This document shows positions 65-61,152 of a DNA stretch of 64,000 nucleotides, piece by piece (within the stretch, counting starts at the first letter, position 1; each line of letters opens with the position of its first letter). The translations under genes and the position numbers were made by a program. This DNA comes from Escherichia coli (GTDB lineage: Bacteria > Pseudomonadota > Gammaproteobacteria > Enterobacterales > Enterobacteriaceae), in NCBI RefSeq assembly GCF_003334405.1, contig NZ_QOWM01000003.1. The stretch is one strand, 5' to 3'. Under the pieces are notes generated by a model, which searched no databases, was not told where the DNA came from, and worked only from the letters and a program-made list of their open reading frames with translations.

Positions 65-1194
65 TCAGGCTACCTCATCTTTATCCAGCATGTTGAATTT
101 GTATGCAGTATAAACGTTCATGTTCTTATTAAAGTAGTACCAGGTACCAACTTCAATGTAGTTCACACGGTCAGCGTCAACATATCTATGTCCGGGTACC
201 CCTTTGATATCTTTACCTTTAGAGTACACATAACCTAAGGACGGACGCAGACCAAAGTCGAATTGATACTGAACAACCGCTTCAAAGTTCTGGGTTTCAT
301 TGATAAGTTGATCACGCATTATTGTATTGCCTTCTCGATCGGCAACACCTGTATCAATAGAACCCGGAGTCATATTACGAGTTTCGCCGTACATTACAGC
401 TGCGTAGACATTTTTCGCGTCATACTTTGCAGCCAATGACCACAGTTCAGCATTTGAACCGTTTCCATCGGCAACTTGATCGTTGGTGCGATCAGATTTG
501 CTATATGCACCAACGATACCAAAACCATTGATGTTATAGTCTACAGACAACGCATAGCCGTCACCATTTTGTTTCTTAGTGCTACGGTTGCTGTTTTTGC
601 CTTGGTACTGAATCGCAAAATCAAGACCATCAACCAGGCCAAAGAAATCATAGTTACGGTAGGTTGCAACACCGTTGGTACGACCATTCATGAAGTTGTC
701 AGCGGAAGCCCAGGAATCGCCACCCCATTCAACTAACATATCGGTATAAGCTGCGGCATCATAAGCAACACCGTAGTTACGGCATAGTCAAATGATCCTA
801 ACTCGTTATATTTCAAACCGGCGAAGGTTAAACGGGTTTTTTCTTGGTTTTCACCTTCGGGCTTGCTGGCGTCGAGGTTGTATTCAAACTGACCAAAACC
901 AGTCAGTTCGCTGGTGATTTGGGTTTCACCTTTAACACCGAAACGAGCATAGGAGGTATCTTCGTTTTCGCTGTTATTATCATCAGTATTTGACCAGATG
1001 CGTTCGCCAACCATCTTGCCGTAGAAATCAACTTTATTGCCATCTTTATTATAAATTTCAGCCGCATTTGCTGCGCCAGCAACTAATAACGCCGGGACCA
1101 GCATTGCCAGAACTTTTCTTTTCATTATGTATTCCCTTGTGATTATAATCTTCATGAATATATCAATAAGTGCCGTTATCCAAAAAAAGCACAT
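65..1194 (-). pseudogene. yedS: OmpC/PhoE-family general porin, disrupted (YedS-like)
   Basis: Minus-strand ORFs 733..1194 (signal peptide [21 protein letters not shown]) and 65..739 ([23 protein letters not shown] porin motif) form one porin split by a 1-base frameshift near 783-786; C-terminus ends ...MLDKDEVA without the usual terminal Phe. Confidence 0.8.
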
Positions 1195-4726: not shown

Positions 4727-5635
4727 TGCGTCCTGAATAACTGGCGCAACTACGGGTTTTGCCGGAAAGAGATATTTTCCCAACGTGACCAGCACCACCG
4801 CGAAGACAATTACGCCGAGCGCCAGCCATTCAATCTTCGAAAGCGTCTCTCCACCCAGTCCCGTACCCAGCAAGACCGCGACCACCGGGTTAACGTAGGC
4901 GTAGCTGGTGGCGAGAGCCGGACTGACGTTGCGGATTAAATACATATAAGCGTTGATGGCGATAATCGAACCAAACAGCGCCAGATAGCCGACCGCAAGG
5001 AAGCCTGAAAGGGAAGGGAGCGCCGTCCGTTTTTCACCCGCAATCATCGACGCGATCATTAACACCACGCCTGCCGCCAGCATCTCAATCGCACCCGCCA
5101 TCATCCCTACAGGTAAGGTAATGTGCGAGCCATAAACTGAGCCAAACGCCCAGCTAATCGAGCCGATTAAAATCAGAATCGCGCCCCACGGATTGCCGCT
5201 TAAATTTCCACCGCTATTGAGCATGATGATTCCGGCAAGCCCAATGGCAATACCCACCCATTCCAGTTTGCGCGTTTTAATGCCAAACAGGCGGCTGAAG
5301 CACAGGGTAAAGAGGGGCACGGTTGCAACCACTACGGCGGCGATGCCGGAAGGAACATTTTGATGTTCGGCAACCGTCACCATGCCATTACCGACAGCCA
5401 GCAATAACAGGCCAATCAGCGCGGCATTGAGCAGCGGACGTAGCGGGGGGAGCTTGTGTCCGCGCAGTAGCAAAAATGCCAGCAATAAAATACCGGCTGC
5501 CAGGAATCGAACGCCCGCCATCATTAATGGAGGCCAGCTTTCCACGCCAATCCGAATGACAAAATAGGTTGAGCCCCAAATGATATACAACGCAAACAGC
5601 GCGCCAAAAAGCGGTAATAACTGGCGGAAACGCAT
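4715..5635 (-). CDS. yedA: EamA/DMT-family transporter YedA
   Basis: 306-aa polytopic membrane protein; synteny. Confidence 0.9.
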   Translation of the reverse strand: MRFRQLLPLFGALFALYIIWGSTYFVIRIGVESWPPLMMAGVRFLAAGILLLAFLLLRGHKLPPLRPLLNAALIGLLLLAVGNGMVTVAEHQNVPSGIAAVVVATVPLFTLCFSRLFGIKTRKLEWVGIAIGLAGIIMLNSGGNLSGNPWGAILILIGSISWAFGSVYGSHITLPVGMMAGAIEMLAAGVVLMIASMIAGEKRTALPSLSGFLAVGYLALFGSIIAINAYMYLIRNVSPALATSYAYVNPVVAVLLGTGLGGETLSKIEWLALGVIVFAVVLVTLGKYLFPAKPVVAPVIQDASSE

Positions 5636-7156: not shown

Positions 7157-9681
<2,525 letters not shown>

Positions 9682-30624: not shown

Positions 30625-32040
30625 TTATTTCGAGTTGCTATTTGAGGTGTCGAACTGCTGTGTCAGATAGCTACTAGTGGAGTTCAGCGAGTTCATTAAC
30701 ACATCTAATTGGGTGAACTGGGCTTTATAGCGCGTCATTAAGGTATCGATACGTTCACTGGCTGCGTTGTACTGGTCGGTCAAATTATTCAGCGTTTTGC
30801 TGACGCCATCTTTTGCTGCCTGGATTATCCCGGTGGAAGAGAGCCAACTGGTCAGGTTGTTACTAATGCCGGTGGTTACCCCAGTACTTTTGCCGTCACC
30901 TATAAACATTTCACCGATACCAGCGGCATCATTTTTTAGCGCCGTTTGCAGTTTGTCGGTCGCGATTTCCAGCTTGCCGGTACTGGCATCGCTGGTAATG
31001 CCAATCTGTGCCAGCGTTTTATAGTTTGAACTGCTGTGAGTATTGGCGAGCAAGGTTTTAAGCTGAGTCTGGATGGTACGCAGTGTGGAGTCACCGAGTA
31101 ATGCGCCATTACTGGAGTCCTGACTTTCAGCTCCGGCATCGACAGCGGTGTATTTGGTTAAGCTGCTGAATGTATCCTGCAATGTGTTATAGGCATCCAC
31201 CCACGCTTTAACCGCATTTTCAGCTTTGGATGTGTCTTTACTGATGGTCAGTGTCTGATTACCGGTGGTGACGTCATTCAGGTTGAGGGTGATATCTTCC
31301 AGTGAGTCGCTGATAGTGTTACTGCTGTTTTCAATCTCAACGTTATTGACTGTCAGTTTGGCGTTTTGCGCGGTGACGCTTTCAATCATGCCATTGCTGC
31401 TATCACCCGGCGTTCCGTTGTAACCCATAAAACTTTCCAGGGCGCTGTCGCCGCTGACGCTAAGTTTCATAGCGTTATTGCTGCCCGTATCGTTAGCGGT
31501 GATGGACAGACGATATTCGCCGTTTCCCACATTGATGATACTGGCGCTGACACCAGCTTTGGCGTTGTTAATGGCATCGCGAATGCCGGAAAGTGACGAG
31601 TTACCCGCGCTGATATCAATCGTGACCGGATCTTTACCGCCGCCTTGTTGGATGGTCAGTACGCTATCGCTGGTGGCGATGGCGGCTTTACTGTCTTTTT
31701 GACTATTTTTTGTTGTCAGCGTCTGTGCCTGCGCCAGTTGGCTAACGCTAATGGTGTATTTCCCAGCAATCGCGCTGCCCGTGGTGGTGGCGCTGAAAGC
31801 CGATGAACTGCTGGTGGTTGAGGTGGCGGTAAATAAATCGGCTTTATTCAGTGCTGTGTTGGCTGTCTGGAAACTCTCTAGTGCACTTTTCAGCGTCCCG
31901 TAGGCGCTCAGTTTCGCGGTGTAAGAGCTTTGCTGTTTTGATATCGGCGTCAGGGTAGATTTTTCTGCCGCCTCCAGACTGTCAAGGATGCTGCTTAAGT
32001 CCAGCCCCGACCCAACCCCAAGCGTTGAAATACTAGCCAT
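30625..32040 (-). CDS. fliD: Flagellar filament cap protein FliD
   Basis: 471 aa with conserved N- and C-terminal heptad regions. Confidence 0.95.
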   Translation of the reverse strand: MASISTLGVGSGLDLSSILDSLEAAEKSTLTPISKQQSSYTAKLSAYGTLKSALESFQTANTALNKADLFTATSTTSSSSAFSATTTGSAIAGKYTISVSQLAQAQTLTTKNSQKDSKAAIATSDSVLTIQQGGGKDPVTIDISAGNSSLSGIRDAINNAKAGVSASIINVGNGEYRLSITANDTGSNNAMKLSVSGDSALESFMGYNGTPGDSSNGMIESVTAQNAKLTVNNVEIENSSNTISDSLEDITLNLNDVTTGNQTLTISKDTSKAENAVKAWVDAYNTLQDTFSSLTKYTAVDAGAESQDSSNGALLGDSTLRTIQTQLKTLLANTHSSSNYKTLAQIGITSDASTGKLEIATDKLQTALKNDAAGIGEMFIGDGKSTGVTTGISNNLTSWLSSTGIIQAAKDGVSKTLNNLTDQYNAASERIDTLMTRYKAQFTQLDVLMNSLNSTSSYLTQQFDTSNSNSK

Positions 32041-32084
32041 ATAGTTTCCTTAATCATGCGACGTGTATAGAACGAATACCGGGG

Positions 32085-32111
32085 TTATCGGCGTAAGCGG
32101 GGTAAAGTTTA
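32085..32111 (-). promoter_or_regulatory. Sigma-28 (FliA) promoter of fliDST
   Basis: On minus strand TAAACTTT-N11-GCCGATAA against consensus TAAAGTTT-N11-GCCGATAA. Confidence 0.7.
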
Positions 32112-32184
32112 CGATTTATTTTTTGCCTTAATGGCACGAACAGCAACGAGGAAGGGGAGTATTTCGACCGCTAGAAAAAAATTC

Positions 32185-32211
32185 TAAAGGTTGTGAGTGA
32201 CCAGACGATAA
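32185..32211 (+). promoter_or_regulatory. Sigma-28 (FliA) promoter of fliC
   Basis: TAAAGGTT-N11-GACGATAA, about 77 bp upstream of the fliC ATG. Confidence 0.7.
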
Positions 32212-32287
32212 CAGGGTTGACGGCGACGAAGCCGAAGGGTGGAAGCCCAATACTTAAACCGTAGACTTGAAAACAGGAAAATGAATT

Positions 32288-33337
32288 ATGGCACAAGTCA
32301 TTAATACCAACAGCCTCTCGCTGATCACTCAGAACAACATCAACAAAAACCAGTCTGCGCTGTCGACTTCTATCGAGCGCCTCTCTTCTGGTCTGCGTAT
32401 TAACAGCGCTAAAGATGACGCCGCGGGCCAGGCGATTGCTAACCGCTTTACTTCTAACATCAAAGGTCTGACTCAGGCCGCACGTAACGCCAACGACGGT
32501 ATTTCTCTGGCGCAGACGGCTGAAGGCGCGCTGTCAGAGATTAACAACAACTTGCAGCGTATTCGTGAACTGACCGTTCAGGCCTCTACCGGCACGAACT
32601 CTGATTCCGACCTGTCTTCTATTCAGGACGAAATCAAATCCCGTCTTGATGAAATTGACCGTGTATCTGGTCAGACCCAGTTCAACGGTGTGAACGTGCT
32701 GTCGAAAAACGATTCGATGAAGATTCAGATTGGTGCCAATGATAACCAGACGATCAGCATTGGCTTGCAACAAATCGACAGTACCACTTTGAATCTGAAA
32801 GGATTTACCGTGTCCGGCATGGCGGATTTCAGCGCGGCGAAACTGACGGCTGCTGATGGTACAGCAATTGCTGCTGCGGATGTCAAGGATGCTGGGGGTA
32901 AACAAGTCAATTTACTGTCTTACACTGACACCGCGTCTAACAGTACTAAATATGCGGTCGTTGATTCTGCAACCGGTAAATACATGGAAGCCACTGTAGT
33001 CATTACCGGTACGGCGGCGGCGGTAACTGTTGGTGCAGCGGAAGTGGCGGGAGCCGCTACAGCCGATCCGTTAAAAGCACTGGATGCCGCAATCGCTAAA
33101 GTCGACAAATTCCGCTCCTCCCTCGGTGCCGTTCAAAACCGTCTGGATTCTGCGGTCACCAACCTGAACAACACCACCACCAACCTGTCTGAAGCGCAGT
33201 CCCGTATTCAGGACGCCGACTATGCGACCGAAGTGTCCAACATGTCGAAAGCGCAGATTATCCAGCAGGCGGGCAACTCCGTGCTGTCTAAAGCCAACCA
33301 GGTACCGCAGCAAGTTCTGTCTCTGTTACAAGGCTAA
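32288..33337 (+). CDS. fliC: Flagellin FliC (short allele, 349 aa)
   Basis: Conserved flagellin N terminus MAQVINTNSLSLITQNNINKNQSAL and C terminus ...QVPQQVLSLLQG flanking a short Ala/Thr/Gly-rich central region. Confidence 0.95.
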   Translation: MAQVINTNSLSLITQNNINKNQSALSTSIERLSSGLRINSAKDDAAGQAIANRFTSNIKGLTQAARNANDGISLAQTAEGALSEINNNLQRIRELTVQASTGTNSDSDLSSIQDEIKSRLDEIDRVSGQTQFNGVNVLSKNDSMKIQIGANDNQTISIGLQQIDSTTLNLKGFTVSGMADFSAAKLTAADGTAIAAADVKDAGGKQVNLLSYTDTASNSTKYAVVDSATGKYMEATVVITGTAAAVTVGAAEVAGAATADPLKALDAAIAKVDKFRSSLGAVQNRLDSAVTNLNNTTTNLSEAQSRIQDADYATEVSNMSKAQIIQQAGNSVLSKANQVPQQVLSLLQG

Positions 33338-33355
33338 TGGCCTTAACCTGCCTGA

Positions 33356-51747: not shown

Positions 51748-55100
<3,353 letters not shown>

Positions 55101-55106
55101 GAGCGG

Positions 55107-55535
55107 TTAATCTCCCGTAAGTGGAACTAACAGCACATCGACCTCACTTGAGGCAATAACTCTTTTCGCCGAGCAGGATGCTCGCGAAAAGAAACTGTGA
55201 TTGTGATTACCGCAAATCACCAAATCGAAATGATGCTTGTGACATACTTCCAGAATATGTTCGCTTAACTCACCGTAGGCAATAAACGTCTTGTCAACGG
55301 GATACCCCGCATCCTGAATTAACTTATCAAGAAAGCTTTGCGTTTCTTCCTGCATCACGCTGCGTAAATCTTCAAGCATCGGCGCAGCTAATTGATTGTA
55401 CATTTCCGGGTCGGAAGCGAGAGTAATTAAACTGATGTGTCCCTTTACTGGCCTGGCGATAGATACCGCTTTTGCCAGCAGTTGCTGACTTTCCGGTGTA
55501 ACCGCAACAGCGACAAGAATATTGCTATAGCTCAT
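55107..55535 (-). CDS. uspC: Universal stress protein UspC
   Basis: 142-aa Usp-fold protein. Confidence 0.93.
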   Translation of the reverse strand: MSYSNILVAVAVTPESQQLLAKAVSIARPVKGHISLITLASDPEMYNQLAAPMLEDLRSVMQEETQSFLDKLIQDAGYPVDKTFIAYGELSEHILEVCHKHHFDLVICGNHNHSFFSRASCSAKRVIASSEVDVLLVPLTGD

Positions 55536-56314
55536 AACCTGTTCCTTATTCTGTGAACTTCAGGTGACATTAAAGCTTTACTCCTAATGGAGAAACGACG
55601 CAATCCCAACTCGGTCAAACAGGTAAATATTAGTCTGATTATTAGTAAAGACAATTAATCAATCACTCCCGGTGATCATATAATTTCAAATGTAATTATA
55701 AGAAAATAGTGTACTGATTCTCCGCATTAAACAAGTGGTTAATATATGTAAAACATTTCATTAACATTAAGTTGATTGTTGCCTTTCTTTGTATTTAATT
55801 AGTTTGTTGTGCGGTAAGTGTCTGTTTAAAAATAGCTTATCTGGTATTGCATGAAAGTGATTATTTATAGCAGATGATTATTTACGGTGAGTTATTTTGA
55901 CTGTGCGCAACATCCCATTTCGATTATTCCTGTTTCATTTTTGCTTGCTAGCGTAGCGAAAAACTTTTTAACAGATTGAAATACACCCAAAACAAAAGTA
56001 TGACTTATACATTTATGTTAAGTAATTGAGTGTTTTGTGTGATCTGCATCACGCATTATTGAAAATCGCAGCCCCCCTCCGTTGTATGTGCGTGTAGTGA
56101 CGAGTACAGTTGCGTCGATTTAGGAAAAATCTTAGATAAGTGTAAAGACCCATTTCTATTTGTAAGGACATATTAAACCAAAAAGGTGGTTCTGCTTATT
56201 GCAGCTTATCGCAACTATTCTAATGCTAATTATTTTTTACCGGGGCTTCCCGGCGACATCACGGGGTGCGGTGAAACCGCATAAAAATAAAGTTGGTTAT
56301 TCTGGGTGGGAATA
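55536..56314 (+). promoter_or_regulatory. flhDC control region (promoter and long 5' UTR)
   Basis: 779-bp AT-rich non-coding interval with no ORF and no IS sequence. Confidence 0.8.
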
Positions 56315-56665
56315 ATGCATACCTCCGAGTTGCTGAAACACATTTATGACATCAACTTGTCATATTTACTACTTGCACAGCGTTTGATTGTTCAGGACAA
56401 AGCGTCCGCTATGTTTCGTCTCGGCATAAATGAAGAAATGGCGACAACGTTAGCGGCACTGACTCTTCCGCAAATGGTTAAGCTGGCAGAAACCAATCAA
56501 CTGGTTTGTCACTTCCGTTTTGACAGCCACCAGACGATTACTCAGTTGACGCAAGATTCCCGCGTTGACGATCTCCAGCAAATTCATACCGGCATCATGC
56601 TCTCAACACGCTTGCTGAATGATGTTAATCAGCCTGAAGAAGCGCTGCGCAAGAAAAGGGCCTGA
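56315..56665 (+). CDS. flhD: Flagellar master regulator FlhD
   Basis: 116 aa from [24 protein letters not shown]. Confidence 0.97.
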
Positions 56666-56667
56666 TC

Positions 56668-57246
56668 ATGAGTGAAAAAAGCATTGTTCAGGAAGCGCGG
56701 GATATTCAGCTGGCAATGGAATTGATCACCCTGGGCGCTCGTTTGCAGATGCTGGAAAGCGAAACACAGTTAAGTCGCGGACGCCTGATAAAACTTTATA
56801 AAGAACTGCGCGGAAGCCCACCGCCGAAAGGCATGCTGCCATTCTCAACCGACTGGTTTATGACCTGGGAACAAAACGTTCATGCTTCGATGTTCTGTAA
56901 TGCATGGCAGTTTTTACTGAAAACCGGTTTGTGTAATGGCGTCGATGCGGTGATCAAAGCCTACCGTTTATACCTTGAACAGTGCCCACAAGCAGAAGAA
57001 GGACCACTGCTGGCATTAACCCGTGCCTGGACATTGGTGCGGTTTGTTGAAAGTGGATTACTGCAACTTTCCAGCTGCAACTGCTGCGGCGGCAATTTTA
57101 TTACCCACGCTCACCAGCCTGTTGGCAGCTTTGCCTGCAGCTTATGTCAACCGCCATCCCGGGCAGTAAAAAGACGTAAACTTTCCCAGAATCCTGCCGA
57201 TATTATCCCACAACTGCTGGATGAACAGAGAGTACAGGCTGTTTAA
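56668..57246 (+). CDS. flhC: Flagellar master regulator FlhC
   Basis: 192 aa with zinc-binding cysteine cluster (CNCCGG...CSLC). Confidence 0.97.
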
Positions 57247-57271
57247 CTGATACGGTGAGGCGCAACATTCC

Positions 57272-57304
57272 AGCAGCGGTAACGACGTACCGCTGCTTTT
57301 TTTT
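57272..57304 (+). terminator. Intrinsic terminator of flhDC
   Basis: Stem AGCAGCGGT / ACCGCTGCT followed by T8. Confidence 0.8.
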
Positions 57305-57372
57305 GCCCCAATCGCGCGTTAACGCCTGACGACTGAACATCCTGTCATGGTCAACAGTGGAAGGATGATGTC

Positions 57373-58256
57373 GTGCTTATCTTATTAGGTTACCTGGTTG
57401 TTCTCGGTACAGTTTTCGGCGGTTATTTGATGACCGGTGGAAGCCTTGGAGCACTCTATCAACCCGCTGAACTGGTGATTATTGCCGGTGCAGGGATTGG
57501 GTCGTTTATCGTCGGCAATAATGGCAAAGCGATTAAAGGCACGCTGAAGGCGCTGCCGTTGCTGTTTCGTCGCTCCAAATACACCAAAGCAATGTATATG
57601 GATCTGCTGGCTCTGCTTTATCGGTTGATGGCGAAATCGCGGCAGATGGGGATGTTTTCGCTGGAACGTGATATTGAAAATCCCCGTGAGAGCGAGATCT
57701 TCGCCAGCTACCCACGCATCCTCGCGGATAGCGTCATGCTTGATTTTATCGTCGATTATCTGCGCCTGATTATCAGCGGTCACATGAACACCTTCGAAAT
57801 CGAAGCTCTGATGGATGAAGAGATTGAGACGCACGAAAGCGAGGCAGAAGTCCCGGCGAACAGTCTGGCGCTGGTCGGGGACTCACTTCCGGCGTTTGGT
57901 ATTGTTGCGGCTGTAATGGGGGTCGTTCACGCGTTAGGTTCAGCCGATCGTCCTGCCGCCGAGCTGGGTGCGCTTATCGCACATGCGATGGTGGGGACTT
58001 TCCTCGGCATTTTATTGGCTTACGGATTTATTTCCCCATTAGCGACTGTTTTACGTCAGAAAAGCGCCGAAACCAGCAAAATGATGCAGTGCGTCAAAGT
58101 CACTCTGCTTTCTAATCTGAACGGTTACGCACCGCCTATCGCCGTTGAGTTTGGTCGCAAAACGCTCTATTCCAGCGAACGTCCGTCGTTTATTGAACTG
58201 GAAGAGCATGTGCGTGCGGTGAAAAATCCGCAACAACAGACGACAACCGAGGAAGC

Positions 58257-58260
<4 letters not shown>
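57373..58260 (+). CDS. motA: Flagellar stator protein MotA
   Basis: 295 aa, GTG start, four TM helices. Confidence 0.97.

Positions 58261-61152
<2,892 letters not shown>

Follow-up and report, generated by a model that had tools for sequence, protein, structure and literature searches.

An uninterrupted, IS-free uspC-flhDC regulatory region in a non-K-12 Escherichia coli genome

Introduction

In Escherichia coli K-12, insertion sequences (IS) upstream of the flhDC master operon raise motility (PMC5100188, PMC4183435, PMC11237407). The part of PMC5100188 that reviews the work of Barker 2004, Lee & Park, and Fahrner & Berg places activating insertions at -99/-96, -166, -303, -315 and -476. A thyA cassette at the IS sites activates motility as the ISs do, so that neither the sequence nor the location of the insert matters for the activation, which has been attributed to the displacement of upstream-bound repressors (PMC4183435). 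Strains free of the IS show poor motility but better survival of an acid shock (PMC11237407). The locus has also been described to encode an antisense RNA, AsflhD (PMC9600491).

In the present work, we examine the uspC-flhD interval in a stretch of 64,000 nucleotides of an E. coli genome, called the window in the following, and compare it with the IS-bearing and IS-free alleles of K-12, with other E. coli lineages, and with Salmonella enterica. We will argue that the segment 55536-56314 is, almost certainly, the ancestral, uninterrupted uspC-flhDC regulatory region of a non-K-12 E. coli. It is important to point out that an IS-free flhDC upstream region is already known and extensively characterised, and that it is the default state of the species.

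Results

The interval between uspC and flhD had been described in an earlier note as 779 bp of AT-rich DNA, and this description is accurate. The coordinates are exact, and the G+C content is 35.2%, compared to 49.9% for the whole window, with values down to 28.5% in 200-bp windows inside the interval. The flanks are the divergent genes uspC and flhD (Table 1), as judged by their open reading frames (ORFs), by the RefSeq annotation of matching records and by protein identity to K-12. UspC is 99.3% identical to the K-12 protein, with one substitution (Q62 here, H in K-12). The ATG of flhD is at 56315, and the older annotation, of 119 aa, corresponds to the in-frame GTG at 56306. Over its full 779 bp, the interval is 100% identical to that of strain Y5.

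Table 1. Features of the uspC-flhDC region, in window coordinates; negative positions are relative to the flhDC transcription start site (TSS).
Feature	Position	Strand	Remarks
uspC (universal stress protein C) CDS	55107..55535	-	ORF; divergent from flhDC; annotated uspC in matching records
uspC-flhD intergenic interval, IS-free	55536..56314		779 bp, 35.2% G+C
Distal AT-rich upstream zone	55641..56021		-476 to -96; K-12 activating IS1/IS3/IS5 insertions map here; uninterrupted here
Empty IS1 target CATTTATG	56010..56017		-107 to -100; occupied by IS1H in MG1655
Empty IS5 target TTAA	56018..56021		-99 to -96; 1195-bp IS5 there in W3110 and the laboratory derivative gb37
CRP-cAMP site TTGTGTGATCTGCATCACGCAT	56035..56056		Core 56038-56053, centre -71.5; identical to K-12
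flhDC class-1 sigma-70 promoter (putative hexamers)	56082..56110	+	-35 TTGTAT 56082-56087, 17-bp spacer, -10 TACAGT 56105-56110
flhDC TSS and 198-nt 5' leader	56117..56314	+	Start G at 56117; leader 100% identical to K-12
AsflhD-equivalent antisense RNA	56117..56336	-	MG1655 b4839, 1978176-1978395, transferred by 100% identity
flhD	56315-56665	+	Intact; FlhD 100% identical to K-12
flhC	56668-57246	+	Intact; FlhC 100% identical to K-12

The absence of IS1 and IS5 from the interval, which the earlier note had stated, is confirmed both by BLAST against real IS copies and by collinearity with MG1655, and the two approaches agree. The IS library consisted of the MG1655 copies of IS1A/H, IS2A, IS3B, IS5A, IS30A, IS186A and IS911A. 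In a blastn-short search of this library, the interval gave only chance matches of 10-11 nt, with E values of at least 1.3, and the library copies of IS1, IS2, IS3, IS5, IS30, IS186 and IS911 were found nowhere in the 64-kb window. Inverted repeats of an IS and transposase fragments were also looked for in 55536-56314, and none is present. A search for IS terminal repeats that allowed up to 4 mismatches found nothing in the interval except one 14/18 chance match, a repeat search returned no inverted repeats of at least 12 nt and, as direct repeats, only two chance pairs of 12-13 nt, and the ORFs of the interval do not exceed 40 aa. There is no target-site duplication either, as CATTTATG and TTAA are both single-copy in the interval.

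The alignment to the flhD upstream region of MG1655, which had been proposed as a check, is gap-free once IS1H and an 8-bp duplication are removed, and it contains one SNP in 779 bp. BLAST against the MG1655 interval gives two blocks, with identities of 481/482 for positions 1-482 and 305/305 for positions 475-779. The MG1655 interval corresponds to that of the window plus the 768-bp IS1H and the 8-bp duplication of CATTTATG. The lengths are accordingly different, with 779 bp here, 1555 bp in MG1655 and about 1978 bp in W3110. No insert of at least 750 bp is present between about -476 and -96, and the allele is hence not an IS-activated one. The companion statement, that K-12 stocks often carry an IS at flhDC, is also correct: IS1 is found in MG1655, and IS5 in W3110, MC4100, DH10B and others, the associated rise in motility being taken from the literature.

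We also searched 72,556 plasmids, a collection in which IS elements abound, with the interval, using sensitive blastn. Matches were obtained in 13 records, with no IS match among the ten that were listed. The listed matches comprise large E. coli records that resemble chromosomes, two weak promoter-proximal matches in Salmonella, and one apparent contamination by E. coli DNA in a Bacillus record. The latter, a Bacillus thuringiensis CT-43 plasmid record (HM037272.1), is 99.6% identical to the E. coli interval over 490 bp (68388-68877); the match ends where K-12 laboratory strains have their IS5 inserted, and it looks like cloning-host DNA.

The promoter, the CRP site at -71.5 and the 198-nt leader are present and unaltered. 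The promoter-proximal 305 bp (56010-56314) are 100% identical to MG1655, and the CRP site, promoter, leader and AsflhD region therefore carry over unchanged. Three lines of evidence place the TSS at 56117. First, this position, which lies 198 nt upstream of the ATG, is equivalent to coordinate 1978395 of MG1655, where the annotation of AsflhD ends. Second, with +1 at 56117, the IS5 target of W3110 falls at -99 to -96, in agreement with the published site (PMC5100188). Third, the same numbering centres the palindrome TGTGA-N6-TCACG (56038-56053) at -71.5. This we take to be the position of the CRP activator site of flhDC reported by Soutourina et al. 1999.

The -35 and -10 hexamers in Table 1 were assigned from the published TSS position and are to be regarded as putative. 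They match the consensus at 4/6 + 4/6 positions, that is 8/12, and such weak hexamers fit an activator-dependent promoter. A consensus scan of 55400-56450 (at least 9/12 for promoters) returned 0 promoters and 0 terminators; it missed the flhDC promoter because the hexamers score only 8/12. The flhDC leader is a target of CsrA and of several Hfq-dependent sRNAs, and GGA motifs occur in it at +7, +50 and +193. The AsflhD equivalent starts 22 nt inside flhD and spans the entire leader.

From the empty interval, the earlier note had gone on to state that the strain has native flhDC regulation. This holds for the cis region only, which has no private SNPs and is identical to K-12 over the proximal 305 bp. 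Of the trans regulators, lrhA, hns, ompR, rcsB and csrA lie outside the window, whereas rcsA, uvrY, sdiA, fliZ, fliT and fliA are located within it and are all full-length. In an alignment of eight alleles, comprising the window and seven others (K-12, BL21, O157:H7, ATCC 25922 and three more), the window allele has no private variant, and its C at 55652 is the majority state, shared by five of the seven. The variable columns of this alignment amount to about 9-10 per 100 bp in the distal part, compared to about 5 near the promoter. At 56053 (-64), in the downstream CRP half-site, the window has G (TCACG), as do K-12 and BL21, while O157:H7, ATCC 25922 and the three other alleles have the consensus A (TCACA). 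The window allele is of the phylogroup A type, with the non-consensus half-site TCACG.

These polymorphisms bear on a different interpretation, namely that the cis region is intact but that flhDC regulation is nevertheless not native, having been reset by changes in trans or by lineage-specific promoter polymorphisms such as TCACG at -64. The G at this position does differ from the consensus A of other lineages, a motility-changing C-to-A substitution has been reported at -63 (PMC5100188), and the window contains a diguanylate cyclase gene, dgcQ, with an in-frame stop. However, the G at -64 is a common natural allele of phylogroup A-like strains and not a private mutation, and the regulators inside the window are full-length, as listed above. 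We therefore consider a reset of the regulation unlikely. That natural variation in the interval, rather than IS insertion, sets the motility levels of the different lineages appears to us distinctly improbable. If lineage differences do tune CRP dependence and silencing, the window allele would define a 'low set-point' class of flhDC promoters.

Turning to the rest of the window, a K-12 origin was considered and rejected, as the identity to MG1655 is 97.7% over the fli region and fliC is different; the flhDC-tap end alone is 99.9% identical to MG1655. Over 25 kb, the window matches the clinical blood isolate 537-20 best, with 99.9% identity. None of the flagellar genes in the window is truncated, whereas 537-20 lacks part of fliK-fliM; the flagellin of 537-20 is only 349 aa long. 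The fliC/fliD segment (30649-33340) is strongly diverged from K-12, with a FliD protein that is 79% identical and a fliC that aligns at its termini only, and the H antigen type therefore differs from that of K-12.

A number of further observations were made outside the flhDC region. Between fliE and yedK (~22624-25651) there is a segment of roughly 3 kb that is absent from K-12. It contains an emrE-like SMR gene, ybcL, an AraC-type regulator, and an IS200/IS605 tnpA (24836-25405, minus strand) together with an N-terminal TnpB fragment (25371-25712), the tnpA/TnpB DNA being the only IS-related DNA found in the window. The gene yedK is truncated to 142/222 aa, and yedL is missing. The dgcQ (yedQ) gene (7157-8851, plus strand), for a diguanylate cyclase that controls cellulose synthesis and motility, is interrupted by an in-frame TAG at about codon 312 of its 564 codons and is probably a pseudogene; the annotation of 537-20, a close relative, also records an 'internal stop' in this gene. 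A general porin gene (yedS/OmpC/OmpF-like; 65-1194, minus strand) is split into an N-terminal part (733-1194) and a C-terminal part (65-739), which suggests a frameshift. The first ~615 bp of the window have no match in 537-20.

We next consider how common the uninterrupted interval is. The full 779-bp interval matches 5422 of 5426 complete E. coli genomes, with a median of one place per genome, although this query cannot separate IS1-bearing alleles because pieces up to 889 bp apart are joined. For the IS-bearing alleles, a 500-bp query over the insertion zone and junction-specific queries were used. The 500-bp zone matches 5420 of the 5426 genomes at 5587 places, and therefore at most 167 genomes (3.1%) have it split by an insert of at least 750 bp. 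The zone is uninterrupted in about 97% of complete E. coli genomes.

Most of the split-zone genomes that could be attributed carry K-12 laboratory alleles. The W3110-type IS5 junction is present in 63 complete genomes, and those among the matches listed are mostly recognisable K-12 laboratory strains (W3110, MC4100, DH10B, HMS174). For the MG1655-type IS1 junction, the single-piece matches among those listed are MG1655 or K-12-sized laboratory genomes, while the total count of 74 is inflated by two-piece joins from pig isolates. In a non-K-12 genome like this one, the site is expected to be empty by default, as is the rule in the species, and its emptiness is not a notable property.

Three individual genomes from these searches deserve mention. 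In EK2009 (NZ_CP040663.1, 'chicken', 4.6-Mb genome), the uspC allele is that of K-12 and IS1 is inserted where MG1655 has it, but 7 bp (window 56003-56009) are missing, and so is the uspC-side target duplication; this is probably a K-12-derived allele with a small IS1-adjacent deletion. In the pig faecal isolates L019 (NZ_CP062895.1) and L020 (NZ_CM149868.1), IS1 is located at or inside flhD, and yecT/argS come immediately after it, as if an IS1-associated deletion had removed flhDC and the downstream che/flh genes as far as flhE. Such a deletion would be inactivating and would abolish motility, making it a natural counterpart to the activating laboratory insertions.

Discussion

On the basis of the K-12 literature, a mechanism can be proposed for the interval. 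The weak sigma-70 class-1 promoter (TTGTAT-17-TACAGT, TSS 56117) would depend on CRP-cAMP bound at -71.5, and the 198-nt leader, together with the overlapping antisense AsflhD, would allow post-transcriptional control. The ~400 bp of AT-rich upstream DNA would keep transcription low, probably via bound repressors and nucleoid proteins, such that the distal zone may act as a silencer to which both kinds of proteins bind. In K-12 laboratory lines, an IS1 or IS5 at -107/-96 or further upstream raises flhDC expression and motility, which it would do by separating the silencing DNA from the promoter.

Both IS targets are empty in the window, and the cis part of flhDC control is therefore in its native arrangement. 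The upstream zone is contiguous with the promoter and, judging from the K-12 studies, this arrangement should therefore be the repressed, regulated one. The literature likewise suggests that silencing would be accompanied by a modest, environmentally regulated motility. By extrapolation from the K-12 work (PMC4183435, PMC11237407), flhDC expression would be low and regulated by the environment, and motility on soft agar poor.

The distal 400 bp might instead hide a gene missing from the annotation, for example for a small protein or an sRNA, or what is left of a mobile element, for example a MITE. For a spacer between two genes the region is long, and two 40-aa ORFs overlap the interval (55532-55654 and 56049-56171), the first of which starts within the interval and ends 4 bp into uspC. 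On the other hand, an Rfam search of 54500-58500 at E <= 1 gives no match, and at the gathering threshold the whole window yields only C0465, DsrA, RseX and three tRNAs, none of them in the interval. Moreover, the interval contains no noteworthy inverted or direct repeat, nothing is annotated there in MG1655 or in the RefSeq records inspected, and the distal part is the most variable one and is not conserved in Salmonella. A hidden gene is thus very improbable, and this option was rejected.

A secondary origin of the empty site, in which an ancestral IS was removed by precise excision or an IS-free allele took its place through recombination, is barely conceivable and was rejected as well. K-12 stocks are reported to lose IS5 on restreaking and to occur as mixtures of IS+ and IS- cells (PMC11237407), but the present strain is not K-12, CATTTATG and TTAA occur once each and show no footprint, the site is empty in about 97% of genomes, and unrelated isolates such as Y5 have exactly the same allele.

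With the interval taken as the ancestral uninterrupted region, its IS-free state is of little significance in itself, and the value of the result lies mainly in the annotation. The sequence predicts a strain with intact flagellar genes and a master operon that is not derepressed. On soft agar, hypermotile mutants would be expected to arise by IS insertion at the empty targets (~56010-56021) and further upstream. The strain would then be placed among the IS-free ones, which pay with a lower motility for surviving acid shock better (PMC11237407).

Comparison with Known Systems

The closest known counterparts are the IS-free K-12 strains, i.e. BW25113, C600 and the poorly motile MG1655 stocks, which share the flanks and the 779-bp architecture of the interval and, like it, have their IS1 and IS5 targets empty. 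The 500-bp insertion zone aligns without interruption to BW25113 and C600, at 99.8% identity. The promoter, the CRP site, the leader and the FlhDC proteins of the IS-free K-12 allele are identical to those of the window, and the difference between the two is the SNP at 55652 (-465), where the window has C and K-12, like BL21, has T.

In the sequenced stock of MG1655 (CGSC 7740), the flanks are identical except for one SNP, but IS1 and the target duplication are present in MG1655 only. The allele of the W3110/MC4100/DH10B type also has the same flanks, and differs by the 1195-bp IS5 that those strains carry at TTAA and that is absent here. The flhDC region of Salmonella enterica is more distant. 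Salmonella has been described to use several flhDC promoters. Its promoter-proximal part and leader are recognisably homologous to the window interval (query 500-777) with about 72% identity, whereas the distal 500 bp have no similarity to it that sensitive blastn detects in the plasmid collection.
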